Shown here one piece after another: positions 14,922 through 40,131 of a DNA stretch of 41,420 bases. The notes under the pieces were generated by a model. The model saw only the letters and a program-made list of their open reading frames with translations, ran no database searches and had not been told where the DNA came from. This DNA is from a virus. Its lineage: Duplodnaviria > Heunggongvirae > Uroviricota > Caudoviricetes. Within the stretch, counting starts at the first letter, position 1. Each line of letters starts with the position of its first letter. The position numbers and the translations under genes are program-made. The DNA is taken from positions 1-41,420 of the IMG/VR virus record IMGVR_UViG_2721755647_000003; one strand, 5' to 3'.

Positions 14922-14998
14922 TGGCGTGGCATGCAGGATTCGAACCTGCGACCAACCGCTTAGAAGGCGGTTGCTCTGTCCGACTGAGCTAATGCCAC
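14922..14998 (-). tRNA. tRNA-Arg, anticodon UCU (77 nt, CCA encoded)
   Basis: Cloverleaf folded by hand: acceptor GTGGCAT/ATGCCAC, D-stem GCTC/GAGC, anticodon stem ACCGC/GCGGT with loop CTTCTAA, T-stem GCAGG/CCTGC, T-loop TTCGAAT, discriminator G, CCA. Confidence 0.85.
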
Positions 14999-24067: not shown

Positions 24068-24612
24068 TGTGCGATCCGGTTATTGCTGGTGGCGCAATGC
24101 TCGCCATGAGTGGCATTCAGGCATACACCCAGTACCAACAGGGAAAGTATGCCTCGAAGGTTGCAGAAGCGAACGCAGATATAGCCACAGCTCAGGCAAA
24201 TGATGCAATAAACAGAGGTAACGCTGAAGCTGAGCAACGGCGCAGAGAGACCCGACAGCGGCTTGGTACACAGGCGGCGACAATGGGGGCTACCGGCGCT
24301 GATTTATCTACAGGTAACGCGCTGGATATATTTGGCGACACTGCCCAGTTTGGCGCTCTTGATTCGCTGACGACGGTGAATAACGCGCAACGCGAGGCTT
24401 ACGGTTATCAGGTTCAGGCTGCCAACTATAAAGCAGAAGCCAGTTCAGCCCGTAAACAGGGGAATGTGGGAGCAGCAACAACATTGCTCACTGCGCCTCT
24501 GAAGGCATACGGTGCGTACCAGATGTTTGGTGGGACGTGGAGTCCGTTTACTCAAAGCACTCCTGCGCCAATCGGGGCAGCAGCAGGAACCAGATTGCCA
24601 GGAGGATTATAA
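24067..24612 (+). CDS. Internal virion protein (181 aa), gp14-position
   Basis: Ala/Gly/Gln-rich low-complexity protein with hydrophobic N-terminus; gene order. Confidence 0.55.
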   Translation: MCDPVIAGGAMLAMSGIQAYTQYQQGKYASKVAEANADIATAQANDAINRGNAEAEQRRRETRQRLGTQAATMGATGADLSTGNALDIFGDTAQFGALDSLTTVNNAQREAYGYQVQAANYKAEASSARKQGNVGAATTLLTAPLKAYGAYQMFGGTWSPFTQSTPAPIGAAAGTRLPGGL

Positions 24613-27233
24613 TGCCAGTCGTACCAACAGTATCCGGCCGTCAGGTTCAGAGCCGTGGAGTTCAGTCAGCAGGCTTGCAGACGTTTTCTCAGCCAGGTAT
24701 TGGTGATGCTTTTGTTCGGGCAGGGACAGAGGCAATTGATGTTTTTGGTCAGGCAAAACAGCGTGCCAATATCGCTCTGGCTCAGGAGGCATCTCTTAAC
24801 CTCAGTCAGATAAGCAGTGATCTGCTGAATAACCCTGAAACAGGTTTGCTTAACCTGAAAGGGAAAAATGCTATTGGAAAAGGTCAGGAGTATACGCAGC
24901 AGTTTGATGCTCAGATCGAACAACTGGCTATGTCGCTGCCGGATGAACAGGCTCGTAATGCTTTCATGCAGCAGGCGCAGCAGCAGCGTATTCAGTTCAC
25001 TACGCAGGCCGGGCGGCACGAGATAGGGCAGGTTCGCCAGTATGAGGCGGATATGCAGGATGCGACACTAAAAAACCTATCGATGCAGTTCCGTAACCCG
25101 ACAATGGCAAACCAGGCAGGATTGAAGGCATATCATAGCATCATCGCTTACGGCGAAGCCCACGGCCAGAGTCAGGAAGAGATCGAACAGAACTGGGTTT
25201 CGTGGCGCGAGAATGCCGCGAACGGTGCGGCGGAGGCGTGGTATGTGCCGATGTATCAACAGATGATGGGGCCGAACGGCAAGATTGAGGTAACCGATAC
25301 ACCGAGTGAGGCGCAGTTATTCTCTGCAATAATCTGGCAGGAGAGTGGCGGAAATCAGTACGGAAAGGACGGAACACCTCTGGTGTCGCCAAAAGGCGCT
25401 GTTGGCGTAGCGCAGGTGACGGAAGATACTGGCCCCGAAGCTGCCCGCCTTGCTGGTGTGCCGTGGGACCGAGATAAATGGTTGAATGACCCGCGCTATA
25501 ATGCCCGCTTGGGGCAAGCTTATTTCGGCGCGCAGATGAAGAAATACGACAATAACCCGGTTCTGGCAGTAGCTGCCTATAACGCTGGCCCAGGAAAGGT
25601 TGACGGCTGGATTAAACAGATTGGCGATCCGCGCACAGGCGAAGTCAGTAACGCCCAGTTTGCCGCAGCTATCCCATACGACGAGACGCGCAATTATGTG
25701 GCAAAAGTAACTGGCAGTGCTGGAGCTATTCCTGGATCTGCGACGATGGAAAACCTCATCGCACAGCCATTCTGGAACGCCATGAGTCCGGACAAAAAGT
25801 CGCAGATGATGAGCAAGGTTGCTGGCATGTACGACATGCAGGCTTCAGCCGGTCGCGTTGCGCTACAGAGTCGAATGCAGGACGACCTATCCAAAATTGA
25901 GGCCGGTAAGCAGGTGACGCCTATTTCAGCGCACGAATGGGCCGCCGTTATGCCGCTTCAGGCTGCGCCTGCCGAGCGCCTGCAGATGGAAAAAACCTTC
26001 CAGCAATACCAGCAGGCAATGACGCTACAACCTGTTTATCAGACCATCATGCAGGGCAACGTCCAGCAGGGTACCGCCGCCGTGCAGGCAATGGCACCGC
26101 AGGAAAACGACCCTGACTTTAAATACAAAGCCGAGCTTTATGCATCGGCAAAGGTCAAGCTTGGGCAGGTACTGAAGGCGCGGGAAGCGGATCCGGGGGC
26201 ATGGCTGCAACAAAACTCTCCGGTTGTGCAGGCTGCATTCCAGCAGTACCTCAATGACCCTTCATCTGGTGAATACCTAGTTTCCCGCATACAGTCTGAA
26301 AAAGACCGCCTGGGGATAATGAGCAAAAAAGTTTTACCGGAGTCCATGGTCAACGACGTACTGCAGCGTATTGACAACACGCAGGAATCTAGCGTAAAGG
26401 CCATTCAGTCGGTGGCGCAGTCGTTCGGAAAATACTCGGATCAGGTGATGCAGCAGGTTCAGAAGAGCGCTTATCCTGCGTTGCAGGTTGTCATGGCTAC
26501 CGAGAACCCGCGCGCGGCAAATGCGCTCTGGCAAAACCGTAGCGTTAAAACTGCTGACTTACGCGGCAGTCTTGAGAAAACCGACGCGGATAGCGCCGAC
26601 TCGTCATGGAATGACCAATCGAAAGATTTTGCTGGCACGATGGTTGTTCAGCCTGGTGGCACTGCCGTGTGGAATAACTTCAACGAGCAGGGAAAACGAC
26701 TTACTTACATCAACATGCAGCGCGGAATGTCGGCGTCTGATGCAGCAAAACAGGCGTATCAGGACATCCTCGGCGAGCAGTATCAGACCAATGGCACTTG
26801 GCGGCTACCTAAGCGTGCAGGGATAGATATTCGTGACGTTAACGATGGTGCCAATGCGTATCTGAAAAACCTGTCAGCAGATCAGATTATGCCGCTTATT
26901 GGTGACCCAAGGCTACCTGATGAGGTCAACCGTGAGCAGAGTATCTCCCGCATTCGTGATAATGCGCAGTGGGTTACCAACAGCGACGAAACAGGACTTA
27001 CCCTGATGCTCAACGGGCTGATCGTCAACGGTGCCGACGGCAACCCGATTACGGTGCCGTTCAACGATCTGGCGAAACTGGGAACAACCAACCGATCAGT
27101 ATGGAACAGCATTACCAAGTTCATTGATACTCCGGTGAAATATACTCCCGGACAGTCTAAGGAATACAGCGCAGAAAGTCAGCGCGACAACCTGATTAAC
27201 ATTTTCCAGAACGGCCAGCAATCAGGACGATAA
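24612..27233 (+). CDS. Internal virion / ejection protein with lytic transglycosylase (SLT) domain (873 aa)
   Basis: SLT-type motifs WQESGGNQ and AAYNAG; ATG at 24612 after GGAGG. Confidence 0.75.
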   Translation: MPVVPTVSGRQVQSRGVQSAGLQTFSQPGIGDAFVRAGTEAIDVFGQAKQRANIALAQEASLNLSQISSDLLNNPETGLLNLKGKNAIGKGQEYTQQFDAQIEQLAMSLPDEQARNAFMQQAQQQRIQFTTQAGRHEIGQVRQYEADMQDATLKNLSMQFRNPTMANQAGLKAYHSIIAYGEAHGQSQEEIEQNWVSWRENAANGAAEAWYVPMYQQMMGPNGKIEVTDTPSEAQLFSAIIWQESGGNQYGKDGTPLVSPKGAVGVAQVTEDTGPEAARLAGVPWDRDKWLNDPRYNARLGQAYFGAQMKKYDNNPVLAVAAYNAGPGKVDGWIKQIGDPRTGEVSNAQFAAAIPYDETRNYVAKVTGSAGAIPGSATMENLIAQPFWNAMSPDKKSQMMSKVAGMYDMQASAGRVALQSRMQDDLSKIEAGKQVTPISAHEWAAVMPLQAAPAERLQMEKTFQQYQQAMTLQPVYQTIMQGNVQQGTAAVQAMAPQENDPDFKYKAELYASAKVKLGQVLKAREADPGAWLQQNSPVVQAAFQQYLNDPSSGEYLVSRIQSEKDRLGIMSKKVLPESMVNDVLQRIDNTQESSVKAIQSVAQSFGKYSDQVMQQVQKSAYPALQVVMATENPRAANALWQNRSVKTADLRGSLEKTDADSADSSWNDQSKDFAGTMVVQPGGTAVWNNFNEQGKRLTYINMQRGMSASDAAKQAYQDILGEQYQTNGTWRLPKRAGIDIRDVNDGANAYLKNLSADQIMPLIGDPRLPDEVNREQSISRIRDNAQWVTNSDETGLTLMLNGLIVNGADGNPITVPFNDLAKLGTTNRSVWNSITKFIDTPVKYTPGQSKEYSAESQRDNLINIFQNGQQSGR

Positions 27234-27234
27234 C

Positions 27235-28932
27235 ATGCCAATTTACACAGATGATCCGGGACAGGGCATTAACCAGCCAATTGGCAACGCGCCAGCAGGG
27301 CTTGGCGAATCGCTGCTTTCTTCCCTTAAGCAGGGATTTGAAGAGGGGCCGGTCATGTCCGGCTACCGCTTTGCGCAGGCCGACTCGCTGGCGAATGACC
27401 CAAACTCTACAGTTATCAGTAAGCAGGACGCAGATGAGCTCCTGAAGCAGTACGGCGTAAAGAGCATAAACGTGCCAGATTCTGGCGTTACGCAGGCTTT
27501 TCTCGATCATGTTATTGCCGAACGCAAAGATTCTCTGGCACGCCAGCAGATTGCGATGTCGGCACCGAGCGGGTGGGTAGCCACGCCGCTTAATTTCGCA
27601 GCCAGCCTAGCTGGTTCAATGGCAGATCCTGGTAACGTGGCGCTGGCGCTGGTTCCGTTCGCTGGAGAAGCAAAGGCAGCTTCTGTGCTTGGCCGATTTG
27701 GCGAGCGATTTGTTGCTGGTGCACGCATGGGGGCAGCGCAGGCGGTGGTGACCGTGCCGCTTACCGGGCTGGCAGCGGCGGCGGAAGGTGACGACTTCAC
27801 CTATAGCAACGCGTTGGAAAGTACTTTCTTTAACACGATGGCTGGCGGTCTAATGCATGCCGGCGGCGGCCTTATCGCCGATATCGTGCGACCGCGTCGC
27901 GTTCCCGATGCTGCAACGGGAGAGTCCCCGGCGTTTTCTGGCGATGCGCAGCCAACCCCGGTGATAACGCCTGACAACATTCCGGCGGGCGTGAATATCC
28001 CTGAGGTTGGCGCTAACGCAGATCTGGCGGCGGCCATTTCCAGTGAAGCGGAGAGCTACGCATACAGCCGGGCTTATGACGACGTGGTTCCTGACTATAT
28101 GGCGCGCCAGCAGGAGTTACAGAGCGGGCAGATCGGTAACGTTGCCGACCTGCGTGCCGAGCTTGCGGCTAATCAACGTCATGCTGACTCGCTTGATGCG
28201 ACGCTGCAACAGCGCACCAAAAAGTATCAGGGGAAGCGGATGAAGTTTAAGGATGCGCGCTCTAGGGCACTGAAAGAGATTCAGGCCGAGAAAGACGCCA
28301 TCGCTGCACGCAATCAGGAGATCAACACATCGCTGGAGCAGAACGCGACAGCAGAGCAGGCGCGCTGGCGCCAGTCTCAGATTTCCCGCGGCGAGATCCC
28401 CGACGACCTGAAAGTCACCATTTCCGAGCGTGCGCAGCAGATCCTGGACGGCATGCAGATGTCGCCGGTCGCTGGCGCAGTTCGCACTGCCGCAAGCGCC
28501 ATCAGGGATGCTGACTGGAGCGTGAACCAGCAGGCGTATCGCGCTGCGCTGGCACACATGATGGAAGGACGTAGCCCAGATGTTGAGCCCTTCTATGAAC
28601 TGCACAAACCGGCACTGCGTGAACGCGCCATCCATCGCATACAGAATCCGGCACGGCAGGTTGATGAAACGGCTCGCCCAGCAAGCGAAACAGCCGATCG
28701 GGTTTATCAAGAAACGCAAAAGGCAGATCATGAAATTACCGCTGCCGCTGCAGACCTTGATAACGAGCTCAACCTGAGTAACGCCCTGCTTGACGATATC
28801 GCTGTCGATAACCCTGATCTTGCGACCACGTTGCGCCAGAAACTCAATGATATTCGTGCCGACGCCAGCGACAATAGCATGAGCAACGCTTTCCGGGCAT
28901 TTGCCGCCTGTATGATTAACCGGGGGATGTGA
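27235..28932 (+). CDS. Internal virion / ejection protein (565 aa)
   Basis: Large Ala-rich ORF in the ejection-protein block. Confidence 0.6.
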   Translation: MPIYTDDPGQGINQPIGNAPAGLGESLLSSLKQGFEEGPVMSGYRFAQADSLANDPNSTVISKQDADELLKQYGVKSINVPDSGVTQAFLDHVIAERKDSLARQQIAMSAPSGWVATPLNFAASLAGSMADPGNVALALVPFAGEAKAASVLGRFGERFVAGARMGAAQAVVTVPLTGLAAAAEGDDFTYSNALESTFFNTMAGGLMHAGGGLIADIVRPRRVPDAATGESPAFSGDAQPTPVITPDNIPAGVNIPEVGANADLAAAISSEAESYAYSRAYDDVVPDYMARQQELQSGQIGNVADLRAELAANQRHADSLDATLQQRTKKYQGKRMKFKDARSRALKEIQAEKDAIAARNQEINTSLEQNATAEQARWRQSQISRGEIPDDLKVTISERAQQILDGMQMSPVAGAVRTAASAIRDADWSVNQQAYRAALAHMMEGRSPDVEPFYELHKPALRERAIHRIQNPARQVDETARPASETADRVYQETQKADHEITAAAADLDNELNLSNALLDDIAVDNPDLATTLRQKLNDIRADASDNSMSNAFRAFAACMINRGM

Positions 28933-31481
28933 TGGCAGCAAACGAATTTTTGACGCAGTGCGAGCGCAGTGTAAATGCTGCCGCTGGTCGCGAGCTTTCT
29001 TCCGATGAGATGGAGTCGCTGGTGCGTGACATGAACGACACCACTAGGCGAATTCTGGCGACCAATGAGGCGCTGTCTCTGGAAGAGGCCGCGATGCGCG
29101 CAGCGGAAGAACTGAGCAATGCCGATATGCTGGCAAAACAGATTGAGGCTCGCAATAAGGCAATCAACACCCGTATTGCCGCACAACGACTTAGAGAGCT
29201 TCGTACTATCTGGAAAGACCGCCCGGATATCGGGCTTGAAGCAATGCTGGTTGGCCGCAACGATGCGCGTACCGGCGCCCGCCGGTCGGTATCTTCGGAG
29301 GTGGCGCAACTGCGCGGCAAGTATCATTCCGGTATCAACTACGATTTTGACCGTGCCGGGCTGGTGCAATTCATCGCCAGCGGCAGCAATGACAGGGAAA
29401 TTGCCGATGCAATGTGGCGCATAGGGCGCGGGCAGTCAACTGACGGTATGACAAAGCAATCCGTAAGCGCTGCACAAATCATCATGAAATGGCAGGAAAC
29501 TGCGCGCATTGATGAGAACCGCGCCGGGGCATGGATACGCAAAGAGCCGGGCTATATAGTGCGCCAGTCACACGACATCATGAAGATCCGCGCCGCAGGT
29601 TATGAAGCATGGCGAAATGCTATTCTCCCGCGCCTTGATGAGCGCACTTTTGACGGCGTGGCTGACCGCGAGCAGTTCATGCGTAACATTTATAACGGGC
29701 TGGCTTCCGGCGTGCATCTTACATCTGAAAAGCCAGATTGGATGAATGGCTTTAAGGGATCGGCGAACGCAGCTAAACGCGCCAGCCAAGAGCGAATTTT
29801 GCACTTCAAAGATGGTATCTCGTGGCACGAGTACAACCAGCAATTCGGCACCGGCAGCCTGCGAGAGGCGCTGTTTGGTGGCTTAAACAGCGCTGCCCGC
29901 ACAACGGGCATGATGCGCGTACTGGGCACTAACCCACAGAACATGTTTAAGTACCTGACGGACACCATTGCTGAAGATATCAGCAAATCCGGAAGACCGG
30001 CAGCGTTGGCTGACTACATGACGAAGGTGCGTCGCATTAACCGTACCGTAATGCCGCAGGTTGACGGCTCGCTAAATATTCCTGGCAGCGTAGGCTGGGC
30101 CAATGCGTCGGCGGCTGTACGCGGCTGGTTGCGTATGAGCCAGCTTGGTGGCGCGGTAATCTCATCGTTTAACGACGTGCCTATCGCCGCTACCGAGATG
30201 CGCTACCAAGGGCAGAATTTTATGCAGGCGTTGCTTGGTGCTATGAGAGGCCGCTTCACGCGTTACAACAGCGCGGAGCAGAAAGAGATCCTTTCCTCTA
30301 TCGGAGTTTATTCCGACTCCATGACGCAGGAAATCATCCGGCGCATATCTGGTGATGACACGCTGAATGGAAAACTTGGTCGCGCGCAGCAGCTTTTCTT
30401 TAAGTACAACCTCATGAACTTCTGGACCGAGAGCGGTCGTAACAGCAACGCCATGATGATAACCAACTGGCTTGCAAAGAATGCTGACCAGTCTCATGCG
30501 CGGCTACCGGAAGACCTGCGACGCGTGCTGGATCTGCACGGTATTGGCGAACGTGAGTGGGAAATTTTTCGTAACATGGACATGGCCGATAGCGAAGGTC
30601 GTAAGTTCATGACGACCAGCGGCATGCGCGGCGTGCCTGACGAAGTGATTGCCGGTTATGTAGAGAGTAAGGGGATCAAACCAACGCAGCGCGCTATCGC
30701 TGACGCACGCGATCAATTGGAAGGGCAGTTGCGCGGCTACATCCTTGACCGCCTGAATATCGCCATGTCAGAGCCTGGCGATCGCACGCAGGCGTTTATG
30801 AAGATGGGCACGGTGCCAGGAACGGTGGCTGGGGAAGCAATACGATTCGCTGGTCAATACAAATCGTTCACTGCAAGCTTCATGCAGAACGTACTAGGAC
30901 GCGAAGTATTCGGGCGTGGTTATATTCCTGCTGGGCTTGGTGAGTCGAAAACCGGATCGCTGACGAATGCGCTGCTACGTAACGGGAAGGGGGCTTTCCT
31001 TGGTGCTGCAAACCTCTTTGTCTGGGCGACTATGTTTGGTTATATCTCCATGCAGTCAAAACTCATGCTGAAAGGGCAAACACCACGCCCGGCAGATGCC
31101 AAGACGTTTCTCGCAGCCGCATCTCAGGGGGGCGGTCTTGGCATCTTGGGTGACTTCATGTTTGGCGAGGTCAACCGCATGGGGGCCGGGCCGGTTACGT
31201 CGCTAATGGGACCGGCAGCATCGAACGCTGACAGCATTATCACGCTGCTCCAGCAGACCACGAGAGGGGATGCAGATTTGGGTGACTGGTATCGCACGGC
31301 ACTTGACAATACGCCATTCCTCAACGTGTTCTGGCTTCGTACGGCGATGAATGGTTTAATATTGAACAGGATACAAGATGCCCTTGACCCAGGCTCTCTT
31401 GAGCGTTATCAGCGCCGTGTTGAGCGTGAGCAGGGTAACGACTTTCTGATCCCACCATCGCAGTTCATGCTAGGTAAATAA
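28932..31481 (+). CDS. Internal virion / DNA ejection protein (849 aa), gp16-position
   Basis: Large ORF coupled to the previous gene; last gene of the GC-rich structural block. Confidence 0.6.
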   Translation: MAANEFLTQCERSVNAAAGRELSSDEMESLVRDMNDTTRRILATNEALSLEEAAMRAAEELSNADMLAKQIEARNKAINTRIAAQRLRELRTIWKDRPDIGLEAMLVGRNDARTGARRSVSSEVAQLRGKYHSGINYDFDRAGLVQFIASGSNDREIADAMWRIGRGQSTDGMTKQSVSAAQIIMKWQETARIDENRAGAWIRKEPGYIVRQSHDIMKIRAAGYEAWRNAILPRLDERTFDGVADREQFMRNIYNGLASGVHLTSEKPDWMNGFKGSANAAKRASQERILHFKDGISWHEYNQQFGTGSLREALFGGLNSAARTTGMMRVLGTNPQNMFKYLTDTIAEDISKSGRPAALADYMTKVRRINRTVMPQVDGSLNIPGSVGWANASAAVRGWLRMSQLGGAVISSFNDVPIAATEMRYQGQNFMQALLGAMRGRFTRYNSAEQKEILSSIGVYSDSMTQEIIRRISGDDTLNGKLGRAQQLFFKYNLMNFWTESGRNSNAMMITNWLAKNADQSHARLPEDLRRVLDLHGIGEREWEIFRNMDMADSEGRKFMTTSGMRGVPDEVIAGYVESKGIKPTQRAIADARDQLEGQLRGYILDRLNIAMSEPGDRTQAFMKMGTVPGTVAGEAIRFAGQYKSFTASFMQNVLGREVFGRGYIPAGLGESKTGSLTNALLRNGKGAFLGAANLFVWATMFGYISMQSKLMLKGQTPRPADAKTFLAAASQGGGLGILGDFMFGEVNRMGAGPVTSLMGPAASNADSIITLLQQTTRGDADLGDWYRTALDNTPFLNVFWLRTAMNGLILNRIQDALDPGSLERYQRRVEREQGNDFLIPPSQFMLGK

Positions 31482-31483
31482 TA

Positions 31484-32044
31484 ATGAAGGCAATTATATT
31501 TTTTGTTTCAATATTGATGTCTGCATTTTCTTTTGCAGGGCAAAATGTTAAATGCGAACTTCAATACTTTGGAGATAGCGATAAATTTAAGGTAACTCAG
31601 TTTTCTTTTATGGGGATTCCATCTGATTCATACCTTTATACCTGTGCCGACTGTGGAGGCATCCAGATAAACGTGTTCCCATCTATTCAGACTGTTGCTT
31701 CCTACTCATTTGAAAACAACATTGATTTCGAAAGGAAAATCAATGCTGAATACAACAGAAAAGACATAGCTAAACTTGAGATGGAAAACGTTACTCAAGG
31801 CGGGAGAATAAAATATTCAATCACCGATACTGGTTTGGCAGAGTTTTACCCAGAGGGCAAAAAGATAAGCTACCTCTACTTTTTAGCCAAGCAACAAAAT
31901 GGTAAAGAACAAGTAGGTTATTCAGGATTTGTTACCTCTAACGGGGATAAGTCATGCTCAATTATTGCGACATATCCAGGAAAAGAAATTTCTTTTCTGG
32001 GAAGTAAATCTCTAAGCTACTTTATGAATCATATATCAATGTAG
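31484..32044 (+). CDS. AT-rich secreted protein of unknown function (186 aa), signal peptide predicted by eye
   Basis: N-terminal MKAIIFFVSILMSAFSFAGQ hydrophobic signal; Cys-containing mature part; marked AT-richness relative to neighbours. Confidence 0.6.
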   Translation: MKAIIFFVSILMSAFSFAGQNVKCELQYFGDSDKFKVTQFSFMGIPSDSYLYTCADCGGIQINVFPSIQTVASYSFENNIDFERKINAEYNRKDIAKLEMENVTQGGRIKYSITDTGLAEFYPEGKKISYLYFLAKQQNGKEQVGYSGFVTSNGDKSCSIIATYPGKEISFLGSKSLSYFMNHISM

Positions 32045-32045
32045 C

Positions 32046-32057
32046 GTGACATGTCAC
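32046..32057. repeat. Perfect 12-bp palindrome GTGACATGTCAC (copy 3)
   Basis: Exact sequence; 1 nt after the TAG stop, directly followed by a terminator hairpin. Confidence 0.9.
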
Positions 32058-32083
32058 AGGCCGCTTTCGCGGCCTTGTTTTTT
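32058..32083 (+). terminator. Intrinsic terminator after the secreted-protein gene
   Basis: AGGCCGC-TTTC-GCGGCCT followed by TGTTTTTT. Confidence 0.65.
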
Positions 32084-32160
32084 AACGAATGCCGCCTCCG
32101 CCCGGGCGGGAATCCGCAGAACGCCCACCGCAGCGGGAGCCGTCAGCGGCAGTATCGTTG

Positions 32161-32673
32161 TTATACTATTGAATTAAATGATATCTTGTCCTTAATATCA
32201 TTAAGTTTGCCATATATCTTTTTTGCATAAGAATCAGCTTCCTCAATAAACTTCGACTTCTCATTATCAGGCATATTTTTGAAGGTATGTGCACATGTAT
32301 ATTGAGAGTAGTAATTGTGAAACTTGTTATACAAATTATTGAGTTCTTGTAAGTCTTTTTTATACTCAGGAAGGTATATGTTTATTAGCATTTCCATCGT
32401 TTGCAACGGATTGACTTTTGATGTGTCAAATTTACTACCAGAGTGGTAACTGGCATTGTTAACAAAATTGAGAATAGCCACTTCGCTTGAAGCTATGACT
32501 TTTTCAGTAAGTATGCAATTTGTGAATAATTGCTCACGTTTATCTCTTAATATTTTTTCGCGCTCTAATTTTATGCTGTTTTTGTATCCTTGCCTTGCAC
32601 TTATGTAAGTAGAAACTATAGCAATAACTGCACCTATCAATGCGCCTAAGATAGTATTATCCATATAAGCCAC
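32161..32673 (-). CDS. AT-rich membrane-anchored protein of unknown function (170 aa; one N-terminal TM helix, then coiled-coil-like domain)
   Basis: Hydrophobic TILGALIGAVIAIVSTYI segment; Lys/Asn/Tyr-rich remainder; third gene of a minus-strand operon. Confidence 0.6.
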   Translation of the reverse strand: MAYMDNTILGALIGAVIAIVSTYISARQGYKNSIKLEREKILRDKREQLFTNCILTEKVIASSEVAILNFVNNASYHSGSKFDTSKVNPLQTMEMLINIYLPEYKKDLQELNNLYNKFHNYYSQYTCAHTFKNMPDNEKSKFIEEADSYAKKIYGKLNDIKDKISFNSIV

Positions 32674-32689: not shown

Positions 32690-33553
32690 TTATTTCCTGC
32701 CACTTCTGTAGTATATGTTGCGACCATTTTTGGTCACATTAACAACATGCCCCTTTGTTTCTACTTTGTTATTTGTTGCCTTATATACTTCAAAGTCAAA
32801 CCATGATATATGACTTATTTCGTCTATAGATACCATAATTTCTAGACCTTGAACTTTCTTTTTGCTTATCCCTTTTATCGCAGCACTGCGCTTAATTTGG
32901 ATTTCACCTGGGTAAGCGTTTGTAAATGTAACAGATAAATTTTCTTTGTTTCTGTACCCTGACATTAAAGGAACAAAAGATATGTGTTGGTGTGGCCCTT
33001 GATTTTCCGTTAGCTCACCAGAACCATTTATTATTCCAACGTATACTTTATTTGATGATAAAGTAATTAACATTGGTTTCTTAGGATCTGATTCGATTGC
33101 ATCAAGCAATAGCAAATCTAAAGAACCCTGGGAGTACGTTTTTCGCAATACTCTAGCTTTCATTGCCTCTGATATTTTGTCATAAATATCACGTTTATAA
33201 AAACAACCTAAAAGAAGATCTTTTAGCCAAACAAAAGATACATAACACAAAGAGAAGCAAATTGATGTGGCTGAGAGAAGAAGCAGCCACATGTAAATTC
33301 TATCTGTTTCTGGTTTTGATGTTACATTAAAAGTTTCCACCATATCGTGAACTAGGTGAAAATCAGGCCATTTATATTTTATAGCGGCTGCAATTATTAC
33401 TGATGCAACAAGGCAATATGTACCTAGTGCCGCTACCTTCATATAAAGAAGCTGGCCTTCGTGTCGGTATAAACGGAAATAATGATACTGGTTAGCGGTT
33501 ATCATAATATAACCGCTAACCAGGATTGGGATAATTAGAAGAGCTAGCAACAC
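32690..33553 (-). CDS. AT-rich integral membrane protein of unknown function (287 aa; about 3 TM helices plus C-terminal soluble domain)
   Basis: Three hydrophobic segments in the first 110 residues; GTG start overlapping the upstream stop (TAGTG). Confidence 0.6.
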   Translation of the reverse strand: MLLALLIIPILVSGYIMITANQYHYFRLYRHEGQLLYMKVAALGTYCLVASVIIAAAIKYKWPDFHLVHDMVETFNVTSKPETDRIYMWLLLLSATSICFSLCYVSFVWLKDLLLGCFYKRDIYDKISEAMKARVLRKTYSQGSLDLLLLDAIESDPKKPMLITLSSNKVYVGIINGSGELTENQGPHQHISFVPLMSGYRNKENLSVTFTNAYPGEIQIKRSAAIKGISKKKVQGLEIMVSIDEISHISWFDFEVYKATNNKVETKGHVVNVTKNGRNIYYRSGRK

Positions 33554-33762
33554 TACTTCCTTACAGTGGCAAGATCCTGTTTAACAATTGCAGCAGCGAG
33601 ACGACGCATCTCCTTAACCTCAGGAAGCTCAGAAATTTGCTGTGATGAGATATATACTCCACCACGCTTGTTAACCTGCGCTGACGCCGGAACTTCTGCA
33701 TTTTTTGCCTGAGGGCTGGGTGCATTATCCCTCGTTTTTGTACGAGCGAACCAAAATCCCAT
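33553..33762 (-). CDS. Small basic protein (69 aa), first gene of the AT-rich operon; possible DNA-binding or regulatory protein
   Basis: ATG at 33762 with strong GAGGAGG RBS; operator palindrome 27 bp upstream. Confidence 0.6.
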   Translation of the reverse strand: MGFWFARTKTRDNAPSPQAKNAEVPASAQVNKRGGVYISSQQISELPEVKEMRRLAAAIVKQDLATVRK

Positions 33763-33868: not shown

Positions 33869-34579
33869 TCAGAAGAACCCTGCCTTGTCGTTGATGTACT
33901 CCGCGTGGGTCTGGATATCACGCAGGCATTTACTCACACCGACGATGTAGCAGAACATGGTGGTCAGCTCCGCCGCCGCGCCCGATACATCGTGCCCGTC
34001 TTCCTGTAACTGGTTTAGCAGATTCATCAGCAGTGAGTTCTCCGTCAGGCCGAGAACACCAGACGGCGAATGAATCAGGCTACGGTAGCCGGGCTTCAGT
34101 GGGGCACTGTAGGTTTTGTTCTCTATCTTCATCGCCTGCATTACTGCTGACGCCGTGGCGTTGGCTACCTGGTCGGCAACCATCTTTATGCGTTCTTCCT
34201 GCGGGAGCGAGTTTTTAATGTAGCTTCCGGTGCGGCGGATCTGAGGAAGAACCTCACCTGTAACCCATTTACGAAAGCGGTAGGGGATAGTGCCTGGTGT
34301 CACCGCATCGCGGCAGCGGAGGATCAGTGTGTAGAGGCCTGACTCGGAGATGATGTTGATCTCTTTTACTCGGCTGTCAAAAATTGCACGATGTTCATGC
34401 CCTATGTTGAACATAGACCTTTCATCATCATCCAGTTTTTCAAGTGCTTGGGTGACGTTTTGGATACGCAGCGCACTACAAACGTCTTGGGCTACAAACC
34501 ATGGTTGGCCATCGATAATGATGGAACGGATAGGGTTAACAGATTCAAATTTGAAGATGGCAGTTTGAGCATTAGCCAT
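33869..34579 (-). CDS. Bro-N domain antirepressor-like protein (236 aa)
   Basis: N-terminal FKFESVNPIRSIIIDGQPWFVAQDVCSALRIQN...ESGLYTLILRC Bro-N pattern; ATG at 34579 with GGAGAT RBS. Confidence 0.75.
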   Translation of the reverse strand: MANAQTAIFKFESVNPIRSIIIDGQPWFVAQDVCSALRIQNVTQALEKLDDDERSMFNIGHEHRAIFDSRVKEINIISESGLYTLILRCRDAVTPGTIPYRFRKWVTGEVLPQIRRTGSYIKNSLPQEERIKMVADQVANATASAVMQAMKIENKTYSAPLKPGYRSLIHSPSGVLGLTENSLLMNLLNQLQEDGHDVSGAAAELTTMFCYIVGVSKCLRDIQTHAEYINDKAGFF

Positions 34580-34733
34580 GGTGGTTATCTCCACTTAGTG
34601 ATTTTAATCACCACCGCAACGCCAATTACTGGTGGTGAACTGGACAAGGTTGGCGTACCGGCCTAAGTGGTACCGGCGTCCTTTCGGACCCCTGCCCAGC
34701 CCACCATAATTCGGATATAGCTGTGCTTAACGC

Positions 34734-34758
34734 ATAAAAAAACCACGTCTGGCGTGGT
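34734..34758 (-). terminator. Intrinsic terminator between the two Bro-related genes
   Basis: Minus strand reads ACCACG-CCAGA-CGTGGT followed by TTTTTTTAT. Confidence 0.5.
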
Positions 34759-34848
34759 ATGCGCCACTTAGTAACTCGGGACGCCAATCCCGGCACTGGA
34801 TTTTGCCAGTACCCGATTACTATGGCACAAGAGGAGTGCGATGTAAAT

Positions 34849-38104: not shown

Positions 38105-38333
38105 ACATTGAGGATTAATCTTAGTAGCCGGATTGCTTATTACGAAGTAAGTTCGGCTTCTTTCTTCTTTAATTGTGACTGAGAGGTACACTAGACCATT
38201 TTCTGAACGAAATTTTCATTGCCGTAGAAGGCAGAAATACAGCGTTTTGAGGTAACTATTATCCTTAAATGGTTTATTATGTGTGCATCTTCAATAGTAA
38301 GGAGATTGTTATGCGTAATAAACGGTGTTCATT

Positions 38334-38738
38334 ATGTCAGCCCATCTAACTACTGATTCTTTAAATCAATGGCTTAGTATGAGCTCTCTTGCTGCAGTTA
38401 TCGTAGGCGTTCCGCCAGAGGTGGCGCTCGGTGCTCTTGCTGGTGCGGTAATTTTTGTTACCTCTGCGGTAGAGTATCCAATTCATCGTCGCGTACTCTT
38501 ATCGATGCTTAGCTTTCTCTGTGGACTTCTTTTCTACAAACCAGCAGCATCAATTCTTATCGGCATAGCCAGCCTGATCCCTACCATCACGCAGGACTCT
38601 TTTGAAAAAGGGATTGTTTTCTCTGCTGGCGCATTCGTGTCAGCAATTGTCGCTGTGCGTATTGGTATATGGCTCTACCACCGTTCAGACAATCCACGCG
38701 ATTTAATTCCGGGGAGAAAAGACGATGGTAACGCATGA
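38334..38738 (+). CDS. Putative holin / lysis membrane protein (about 134 aa; start uncertain)
   Basis: Several hydrophobic helices; first gene of the lysis cassette; a strong AAGGAG RBS serves an overlapping 12-codon ORF at 38311 in another frame. Confidence 0.55.
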   Translation: MSAHLTTDSLNQWLSMSSLAAVIVGVPPEVALGALAGAVIFVTSAVEYPIHRRVLLSMLSFLCGLLFYKPAASILIGIASLIPTITQDSFEKGIVFSAGAFVSAIVAVRIGIWLYHRSDNPRDLIPGRKDDGNA

Positions 38739-39033
38739 GTTTTTTTTGCTTATCACCAATGCAGTTATTTGTACTGGCATAGCAATTCGCGTTGTCACAT
38801 TCCGGCGTAACGGCTCTCAACATCGAAGATGGGGAGGGTGGCTTGCTTATTTCCTTATTGTTGCTGCGGCCAGTATTCCTGTTCGTGTCGTCTATGCAAT
38901 CTGGTTACGCACGCCAATGGCTGTGGATTTATCTGAGGTCATTATCAACGCTGTCATGCTTGCCGCGGTTATTAAAACACGCGGTAACGTTGTTCAGATT
39001 TTCAAAATATCGAGGTCTAAACATGGAGATTAA
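38725..39033 (+). CDS. Second putative holin-like membrane protein (102 aa)
   Basis: Three hydrophobic segments, basic C-terminus; GGGGAG RBS; overlaps both flanking genes. Confidence 0.55.
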
Positions 39034-39652
39034 ACAATTCCAGCGAGCTGCTGGTATTAGCGAGGCGCTGGCCGCACGCTGGTTCTCGCATATAACTTCT
39101 GCGATGAAAGAGTTTGGTATCAGCAAAGCAGAAGATCAGGCAATGTTTATTGCTCAAGTCGGGCATGAGTCTGGGGGCTTCACCAGGTTGCAGGAGAATT
39201 TCAACTACAGTGTCAGCGGACTGGCTAACTTCGTTCGGGCTGGGCGTCTCACTCAGGGGCAGGCTAATGCGCTGGGTCGCCATGCTGGTGAACCACCATT
39301 GCCACTCGAGCGCCAGCGAGCGATTGCCAATCTGGTGTACAGCAAACGCATGGGGAACAATGCCCCAGGCGATGGCTGGAATTACCGTGGCCGCGGACTT
39401 ATCCAGATTACCGGTTTGAATAACTATCGTGATTGCGGAAACGGCCTGAAAGTGGACCTGCTGGAGAATCCTGAACTGTTGGCGCAGGACGAATACGCGG
39501 CTCGTAGCGCGGCGTGGTTCTTCTCCAGCAAAGGTTGCATGAAGTATACCGGCGATATTGCACGTGTAACTCTGATTATCAATGGTGGCAGGAATGGCAT
39601 CGACGACCGGCGCGCGCGGTACGTCACTGCCAGTAAGGTGCTGGCTGTATGA
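39023..39652 (+). CDS. Endolysin, glycoside hydrolase family 19 (chitinase-like lysozyme), 209 aa
   Basis: [12 protein letters not shown] and [15 protein letters not shown] motifs typical of GH19 endolysins. Confidence 0.85.
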
Positions 39653-40131
39653 TCTGGTCATTCGTAAAAGCATACCGTAAACAGTTGATTATCATGGCGG
39701 TGCTTGCTGTTCTGGTCATATCAGGAGTTGTTGCCTGGAATGTGCACGGCAGTCGTCAGTACGACGCTGGGTATGCACAGGCGAAAGAAGACCGCAAAAC
39801 CGAAGATGAGAGAATTCGTCAGCACTACGAACAGGAGAAATCGATCAATGAACGTGAAGCGCAGCAGAGGATCGACCAGGCGCGCAATGATGCTCTTGAT
39901 GCTGCCGCTCGCGCTGGCCGGTTGCAGCAACAGCTCGTTGCCATCCGTGAGCAGCTCAGGCACTATAACGCCATTGTCGGCGCTGGGTCGTCAGCCGCAG
40001 ACACCGGAGTTTTGCTTGCCGACGTGTTCAGCAAATCTCTCGAGAGAAATAGACAACTGGCAGAGTATGCTGACCGGGCAGCCGAAGCCGGAAGAGTCTG
40101 CGAAAAACAGTACGACACCCTGACCAGATAG
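39649..40131 (+). CDS. Rz-like i-spanin (160 aa)
   Basis: N-terminal TM helix, coiled-coil periplasmic domain; coupled to endolysin; contains an embedded +1-frame lipoprotein gene. Confidence 0.8.
39887..40123 (+). CDS. Rz1-like o-spanin lipoprotein embedded in the Rz gene (78 aa)
   Basis: [13 protein letters not shown] lipobox signal followed by Pro-rich sequence, wholly inside Rz in another frame. Confidence 0.75.
   Translation: MMLLMLPLALAGCSNSSLPSVSSSGTITPLSALGRQPQTPEFCLPTCSANLSREIDNWQSMLTGQPKPEESAKNSTTP

Follow-up and report, generated by a model that had tools for sequence, protein, structure and literature searches.

Very few cases are understood in which short-tailed phages are excluded as their DNA enters the cell, namely P22 SieA, T4 Imm, T4 Spackle and P1 Sim. 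To our knowledge, these examples of entry exclusion all act through different proteins. The present analysis concerns x186, a gene for a 186-residue precursor located in a viral DNA of 41,420 nucleotides (positions 1 to 41,420 of IMG/VR record IMGVR_UViG_2721755647_000003; hereafter the window). The gene lies at the end of the genes for the internal virion or 'ejection' proteins of a temperate podophage, and its product may act in the periplasm against the ejection proteins of incoming related phages.

In P22, sieA follows the last ejection gene and precedes the tailspike gene, is optional, occurs in unrelated sequence types and blocks DNA delivery, with escape mutations mapping to the ejection proteins gp16 and gp20 (PMC10883804). 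x186 resembles sieA in its gene position and in being optional among relatives. However, SieA is a polytopic inner-membrane protein expressed in the lysogen from its own promoter, whereas the x186 product is predicted to be soluble and Sec-exported and its gene has no detectable promoter. No similarity in sequence emerged when x186 was compared by tblastn with 50,697 phage records, and the two belong to a P22-like (SieA) and an epsilon15-like (x186) lineage. T4 Spackle (gp61.3) acts in the periplasm, where it inhibits the tail lysozyme, a peptidoglycan hydrolase borne on the injection device of the incoming phage (PMC7677548). Like x186 it is a small, signal-peptide-bearing protein, and the x186 operon encodes an injected SLT transglycosylase; however, Spackle is the product of an early gene of a virulent myovirus, with no sequence relationship to x186.

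Immunity proteins of type VI secretion systems (T6SS) offer a further comparison. Among them, Tsi3 is located in the periplasm and inactivates a peptidoglycan muramidase that has been injected; its authors noted that it resembles Mog1 and PsbP (PMC3792639). Tsi3, TplEi and Tli4 (C-domain) are all periplasmic and inactivate, by binding, enzymes injected by a phage-tail-like machine. Their identity to x186 is 6-10%, with no profile-level match, and they are encoded beside their effectors in bacterial T6SS loci, not in phages. The Eag chaperones (DUF1795: SciW, EagT6/PA0094) bind transmembrane segments of injected effectors, according to the titles of their PDB entries; they are cytoplasmic and without a signal peptide, whereas x186 has a signal peptide, four conserved cysteines and no DUF1795 match. 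Phages C1, C6 and Arnold need the periplasmic host factor DcrB to inject their DNA (bioRxiv 10.1101/2025.12.01.691526). DcrB is an enterobacterial host lipoprotein, whereas x186 lacks a lipobox and has no sequence similarity to DcrB; that x186 mimics or competes with DcrB is pure speculation.

The x186 open reading frame (ORF) was judged to be more than a chance ORF because of its full-length match to phrog_11983 (unknown function, E = 1e-130), the existence of about 25 sequence clusters of homologues, a pairwise ratio of nonsynonymous to synonymous substitution (dN/dS) of 0.12-0.25, which indicates purifying selection, and a confident AlphaFold model. On this evidence x186 is a real gene of a small uncharacterised family, whose product is predicted to be exported to the periplasm. 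The N-terminus, MKAIIFFVSILMSAFSFA followed by GQ, contains one lysine (K2) and a 10-residue core with a mean Kyte-Doolittle hydropathy of 3.0; small residues occupy -3 and -1 of the cleavage site that follows residue 18, the call of a signal peptide being rule-based. This architecture, including the -3/-1 site, is common to all family members (20/20), and the signal peptide is the sole hydrophobic segment of x186. The lipobox (L-[AS]-[GA]-C) is absent, as there is no cysteine at +1 and the first cysteine is residue 24, six past the predicted cleavage. The four cysteines (C24, C54, C57 and C158, including the pair C54-x-x-C57) are invariant down to 27% identity, whereas five virion proteins encoded upstream contain none or one each, the contrast expected of a protein of an oxidising compartment; disulfides among the four probably stabilise the protein.

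The GC content of x186 is 0.357 (0.342 at third codon positions, GC3), in comparison to 0.53-0.58 for the three genes upstream. Homologues are 10-23 GC points below their neighbours in 8/8 loci compared. Low GC is hence a persistent property, and the possibility that it marks a recent acquisition was rejected, since it is seen in all diverged homologues. The earlier note on this DNA, made from the sequence alone, had described an AT-rich gene for a 186-residue protein with a clear signal peptide and several cysteines directly after the last ejection-protein gene, and in each of these respects its description holds.

The structure of x186 was predicted by AlphaFold (AF2), with a mean predicted local distance difference test score (pLDDT) of 86.9 and a predicted TM-score (pTM) of 0.81. 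With 14 close homologues as input the pLDDT was 44, and a confident model was obtained only after an exhaustive hidden Markov model (HMM) search had added five distant members. The model has the Mog1/PsbP fold, an alpha/beta sandwich, and the mature protein, of about 167 residues, is accordingly modelled as a Mog1/PsbP-type sandwich with a predicted periplasmic location. Fold matches (match score in brackets) comprised PsbP (11.7), the Eag chaperone SciW (9.6), Mog1 (9.5), PA0094 (9.5), LpqN (8.9), Tsi3 (7.8), DcrB (7.7), TplEi (7.6) and a Tli4_C domain protein (6.4), with sequence identities of 5-12%. Foldseek against the PDB gave the same set, so that the structure prediction and fold search proposed in the earlier note yielded a confident model and consistent matches. 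A search of viral folds in BFVD gave no more than two hits, both of them weak and both to phage 'lipoproteins' (E-values 9e-5 and 3e-4; TM-scores 0.45-0.52).

Sequence-based searches were largely silent. Pfam, NCBIfam and PADLOC scans of x186 gave no significant match (for PADLOC, none at E <= 0.1), and a sequence and profile search of the PDB likewise gave none. Pfam searches with 20 family members placed no family above noise, PsbP, DcrB, DUF1795 and Tli4_C included, with only a sub-threshold scatter (HalOD2, E = 0.031). Two marginal matches were discarded: one to the NlpE equivalog (E = 0.033; 13.6 bits against a 243-bit cut-off), which is noise and covers just the signal peptide and the CxxC region, and one to the PDB profile of the T5 'lytic conversion lipoprotein' (Llp; E = 0.2), which is confined to residues 1-40 and so to the signal peptide.

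Terminase, portal, major head protein, tail proteins, internal virion proteins and a tailspike were recognised in the window by PHROG matches, and megablast retrieved the Escherichia phages HEMP4, TL-2011b, phiv142-3 and phiV10 and, more weakly, epsilon15. Because of these matches and relatives the window is assigned to a phiV10/epsilon15-like (Uetakevirus) temperate podophage prophage of E. coli. The three large genes 5' of x186 correspond to those of epsilon15 gp15-gp17, which are its internal virion or 'ejection' proteins (Table 1). Identity of the window's gp17-like protein to phiV10 p20 is only 23%, but it reaches 87-91% with the proteins encoded just before the x186 homologue in Hafnia and in a metagenomic contig, and 51-62% where the x186 homologue itself has an identity of about 35%; we refer to this divergent ejection module as W-type. 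By protein, its closest relatives in deposited phages are found in Stenotrophomonas (49%) and in Pseudomonas Ab31-like phages (45%), with phiV10 at 23%. Near identity to relatives such as the Phi05 contigs and epsilon15 stops near 25031, within the gp15-like gene, and the homology of other phages to the window restarts about the x186 stop codon. Since close identity ends and resumes at these points, the W-type module (about 25031 to 32044) looks like a mosaic block of about 7 kb.

The x186 ATG lies 2 nt past the TAA stop of the gp17-like gene, and its only Shine-Dalgarno-like element, AGGT, lies within that gene. This junction (..TAGGKAAATAAnnATG) is kept in homologous loci, with gaps between gp17 and x186 of 2-23 nt (8 loci). 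No sigma-70 or other promoter-like site was found on the plus strand in 31000-31484 (about 480 nt upstream) by a consensus scan, which is weak evidence. Downstream, a perfect palindrome and a Rho-independent terminator follow. The same module closes the late operon in phiV10 (where the terminator is annotated), phiv142-3, TL-2011b, a Hafnia prophage and a metagenomic contig, and in epsilon15 a terminator likewise follows gp18. Because it ends the late operon in relatives that lack x186, the terminator is best regarded as the late-operon terminator, part of the conserved backbone, and x186 as the last cistron of the late ejection-protein operon. The absence of a detectable promoter, the ribosome-binding site inside the upstream gene and the late-operon terminator that follows suggest that x186 is probably co-transcribed with the gp17-like gene and possibly translationally coupled to it.

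The palindrome stands 5 nt past the last codon in 20/26 x186 loci and is unchanged in six aligned relatives whatever gene precedes it, phages without x186 included. As homology to other phages resumes about the x186 stop codon, the palindrome appears to mark the cassette's mosaic boundary on the right-hand side. It may be bound by a protein or form an edge of recombination. A promoter-like match on the minus strand across the palindrome (GTGACA-18-TATGAT, 32057..32028, 10/12) was set aside as probable chance, the region containing 10 such sites against 9.9 expected.

These data modify the picture given by the earlier note, which had seen a stand-alone gene with its own terminator that looked like an independent moron rather than a virion gene. 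The gene is not stand-alone, given the 2-nt gap, the Shine-Dalgarno-like element inside the gp17-like gene and the lack of a promoter-like site upstream. The palindrome-plus-terminator module is present as described, but it is not x186's own, for it also occurs in relatives without the gene. The non-virion cargo and the atypical GC content are upheld; independence and an own terminator are not. Like a moron in the Hendrix/Juhala sense, x186 is an additional gene with an unusual base composition, and its flanking genes adjoin one another in the related phage Ab31; unlike a moron it lacks an autonomous promoter (consensus scan) and ends at a terminator of the backbone.

The x186 family is tiny: 5.8 billion proteins contain 17-21 of its clusters at 90% identity, and an HMM search of 1.84 billion proteins gave 8 representatives at 50% identity. 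All named members come from Enterobacterales. tblastn found no homologue in 50,697 deposited phage genomes, and there was none in the GTDB species representatives. Fifteen IMG/VR contigs carry x186, as do 55 of 5426 complete E. coli genomes, all at 99% identity or more. In every locus examined (26/26, with x186 identities of 27-100% and satellite-like islands included) the homologue lies directly after a W-type gp17 homologue. The divergence of the two genes is not parallel. In comparison to a Salmonella locus (L018), x186 is 92% and gp17 90% identical, with a synonymous divergence (dS) of 0.31 for x186 and of >2 for the three ejection genes; in comparison to locus L015, x186 is 44% and gp17 87% identical. 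Consequently, the linkage appears to be positional and not strictly co-evolutionary, the cassette reassorting relative to gp17 but always within this slot, and strict co-evolution of x186 with gp17 was rejected.

The W-type gp17 gene (at least 99% nucleotide identity) was found in 62 E. coli genomes, as against 55 with x186, and seven of the listed W-type gp17 genomes are without x186. Three of the seven were examined: an unrelated 123-residue protein with its own signal peptide starts 1 nt after the gp17 stop, and a 98-residue polytopic membrane protein is also present in two of the three. x186 is absent from phiV10, epsilon15, phiv142-3, TL-2011b and Ab31. In the Pseudomonas phage Ab31, whose gp17 homologue is 45% identical, the slot holds no gene. 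Elsewhere it is occupied by gp18 of epsilon15 (64 residues, two transmembrane segments), p21 of phiV10 (46 residues, two transmembrane segments), a 98-residue membrane protein in phiv142-3, a 113-residue protein with two transmembrane segments in an island, and a 95-residue membrane protein in Stenotrophomonas phage BUCT708; in locus L011 a lipoprotein follows the x186 homologue. The GC content of these other slot genes is 0.31-0.46. Thus every relative examined that has a gene in the slot encodes there, by its sequence, a small, AT-rich, envelope-targeted protein. Because prophages with ejection genes at least 99% identical carry a different secreted protein, x186 is taken to be dispensable cargo, optional in a dedicated slot that ends the ejection-protein operon in a sub-lineage of the epsilon15/phiV10-like podophages. 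It does not behave as a conserved virion component: it is missing from related phages and replaced in near-identical prophages, and the comparison across related prophages envisaged in the earlier note shows it to be optional and exchanged for the unrelated 123-residue protein.

The same genes were also found outside complete prophages. In islands at L022 (NZ_CP148435.1 1160000-1186000), L023, L024, L027 and L014/L015, the only virion-related genes are the three ejection genes and the slot gene; there are no capsid, terminase or tail genes. The ejection trio is preceded by genes for an integrase, Rha and AntA/B regulators, an Icd-like protein, DUF4222, a DUF927 primase, SSB, ProQ/FinO and PerC. 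In some of the islands the trio is of the W-type and x186 is the slot gene. The islands are inserted at yicC-dinD or near cvrA, and their junction into the ejection genes occurs in 45/5426 E. coli genomes. The same island in strain ExPEC XM has an ejection trio whose sizes are epsilon15-like, followed by a different slot gene (a 113-residue membrane protein), and a differently arranged yicC island combines the trio and an x186 homologue (44% identity) with an integrase, AlpA and DUF927. Since islands of different make carry the trio with the slot gene only, the trio and slot gene appear to travel as a unit into elements resembling P4 or phage-inducible chromosomal islands (PICI). No description of satellites carrying ejection proteins was found in the literature searched, and these satellite-like islands deserve a study of their own.

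Taking together the predicted export and fold, the operon membership, the linkage to the ejection module in all 26 loci, the behaviour of the slot and the precedents, we tentatively favour, at rather less than an even chance, the reading that x186 works in the periplasm as an exclusion or immunity-like protein, directed against the ejection proteins that incoming related phages bring. In this scheme, x186 would be made from the final cistron of the late ejection-protein operon, exported via the Sec pathway, relieved of its 18-residue signal peptide and folded in the periplasm. There it would bind ejection proteins released by a superinfecting related phage, the targets being either or both of the gp15-like protein, with its SLT transglycosylase domain, and the conduit proteins (gp16/gp17-like). 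This would keep the conduit from assembling or the peptidoglycan from being damaged, with the outcome that DNA delivery is blocked (superinfection exclusion) and/or that the cell is protected from lysis from without. The islands in which the ejection trio is accompanied by x186 strengthen the functional tie between them, yet this could be hitch-hiking within an operon.

Several points weigh against such a role. Searches of the literature by protein accession returned nothing on members of the x186 family, and x186 has no PADLOC match. The modelled Mog1/PsbP fold specifies no target, because it is a generic binding scaffold and identity to its matches is 5-12%. Furthermore, as judged from the promoter scan, expression of x186 in the lysogen is doubtful without an own promoter such as P22 sieA has, so that exclusion would operate mainly late in lytic growth or after induction. 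Finally, the unequal divergence of x186 and gp17 in L018 and L015 gives no clean signal of co-evolution.

The most serious alternative, though an unlikely one, is that x186 is a lysogenic-conversion or virulence moron without any part in phage entry, its protein acting on the envelope of the host or on the animal host, for instance in serum resistance, in adhesion or in tolerance of stress. Its AT-rich composition and predicted export would suit such a protein, as would its presence in just 55/5426 E. coli genomes and its replacement by other cargo, and it sits in the stretch that leads from the ejection genes to the tailspike gene, in which relatives carry conversion and accessory genes. However, with no promoter-like site and a ribosome-binding site within a late gene, expression from a repressed prophage is not expected; a conversion gene also does not explain the 26/26 positional linkage to one type of ejection protein or the retention in islands whose only virion-related genes are the ejection genes, and x186 has no similarity to a known virulence or conversion family. 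A conversion or virulence role was therefore considered less likely than one tied to the ejection-protein module.

A tie to that module could also be of a different kind, with x186 serving as a fourth virion or ejection protein held by an uncleaved N-terminal helix as its anchor, or as an Eag-like chaperone that shields hydrophobic segments of the ejection proteins before packaging. The shared operon, its tight coupling and the constancy of the W-type trio as partner, even in islands, speak for such a helper, but we regard it as improbable. The four invariant cysteines and the signal peptide, which is canonical, cleavable and conserved at its -3/-1 site, indicate the periplasm, not the cytoplasm or capsid; prophages with ejection genes at least 99% identical do without x186; the slot of Ab31 is empty despite its 45% identical gp17 homologue; and codon and GC usage are persistently unlike those of virion genes. 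Equally improbable is a DcrB/LpqN-like periplasmic modulator that serves the phage's own late functions and not exclusion, tuning lysis timing or progeny release through lipoprotein or peptidoglycan homeostasis, since, despite the late-operon placement, a fold in common with the envelope-biogenesis proteins DcrB and LpqN and the small membrane proteins in the slot of relatives (one with a very weak holin-like match, E = 0.027), a complete lysis cassette lies elsewhere in the window (38325-40131), with holin, GH19 endolysin and DUF2514 genes arranged alike in homologous loci, x186 has no link to that cassette, and the mutually unrelated slot genes fit arms-race cargo better than a core lysis function.

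If x186 does exclude incoming phages, it would provide a tractable new example of entry exclusion by a single small gene and a probe for the poorly known epsilon15-type ejectosome. Given what the slot after the last ejection gene encodes in relatives, it is a good place to seek further entry-blocking proteins. If x186 is merely a dispensable hitch-hiker, it is an ordinary accessory ORF. What is new here is the protein family and the use made of a known fold; envelope-directed accessory and exclusion genes are of a known kind. A bolder extension, for which we see only a slim chance, is that x186 represents a new class of periplasmic 'ejectosome traps', that is, a Tsi3/Eag-like captor of Mog1/PsbP fold for incoming epsilon15-like ejection proteins. 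With the ejection trio it would form a portable entry-and-exclusion module repeatedly captured by P4/PICI-like islands, possibly re-equipping helper capsids with an ejectosome of the island's own and excluding competitors.

Table 1. Features of x186, the genes before it and the region beyond, by position in the window
Feature	Position	Strand	Basis or remark
gp15-like ejection protein, SLT lytic-transglycosylase domain	24537-27233	+	PHROG match; SLT Pfam domain in homologous loci
gp16-like ejection protein	27235-28932	+	PHROG match
W-type gp17-like last internal-virion/ejection protein, ~849 aa	28929-31481	+	phrog_684 'virion structural protein'
Shine-Dalgarno-like AGGT, 8 nt 5' of the x186 ATG, within the last codons of the gp17-like gene	31472-31475	+	Sequence; junction alignment
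x186 gene, 186-aa precursor	31484-32044	+	ATG start, TAG stop at 32042-32044
Predicted Sec signal peptide, residues 1-18, cleavage between SFA and GQ	31484-31537	+	Rule-based n/h/c analysis
Perfect 12-nt palindrome GTGACATGTCAC	32046-32057		Invariant in 6/6 aligned relatives
Rho-independent late-operon terminator (putative): stem AGGCCGC-TTTC-GCGGCCT (7-bp GC stem) 32058-32075, T-run to 32083	32058-32083	+	Terminator scan; alignment across relatives
170-aa gene, apparently hydrophobic N-terminus	32161-32673	-	phrog_36918; AT-rich
287-aa gene, hydrophobic N-terminal half, soluble C-terminal part	32690-33553	-	phrog_3630; by eye from translation
69-aa gene	33553-33762	-	Convergent with x186
Bro-N/Ant antirepressor gene	33869-34594	-	Upstream of the 69-, 287- and 170-aa genes
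C4 antisense RNA and isrK Hfq-binding RNA matches	34628-34711 and 34736-34812	-	Rfam; just upstream of the Bro-N/Ant gene

Beyond the terminator, the minus-strand genes for the 170-, 287- and 69-residue proteins, all convergent with x186, were considered as its possible partners. The C4/isrK-Ant region looks, from its sequence matches, like a control region of the P1/P7 immI type, and the 69-, 287- and 170-residue genes appear to be the distal part of this antirepressor (C4/isrK RNA - Ant) unit. The GC content of the 170/287-residue pair is 0.34-0.39, and neither gene has a Pfam or PADLOC match. The earlier note had suggested that x186 may function with this adjacent membrane operon. However, the minus-strand genes co-occur with x186 in just 1-3 of the 26 loci, other x186 loci holding YafO, DUF4760, DUF2335 or Arc genes in their place, and a link between x186 and these membrane genes was rejected on this ground. 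The 170/287-residue pair is instead a candidate for abortive-infection or exclusion cargo of the ant operon.

The segment between the terminator and the 170-residue gene (32086-32161) is GC-rich and homologous to the 3' part of a minus-strand gene for a 53-residue 'transmembrane anchored protein' found in TL-2011b, phiv142-3 and many E. coli prophages. This suggests a remnant, the AT-rich 170/287-residue cassette having replaced the 5' part of the 53-residue gene. The terminator scan also detected, at 33488-33523 on the minus strand, a hairpin with a perfect 15-bp stem (CTGGTTAGCGGTTAT-ATTATG-ATAACCGCTAACCAG) inside the 5' end of the 287-residue ORF. Elsewhere in the prophage, a tRNA gene was found at 14925-14998 on the minus strand, between the terminase and portal regions (Rfam, 73 bits).

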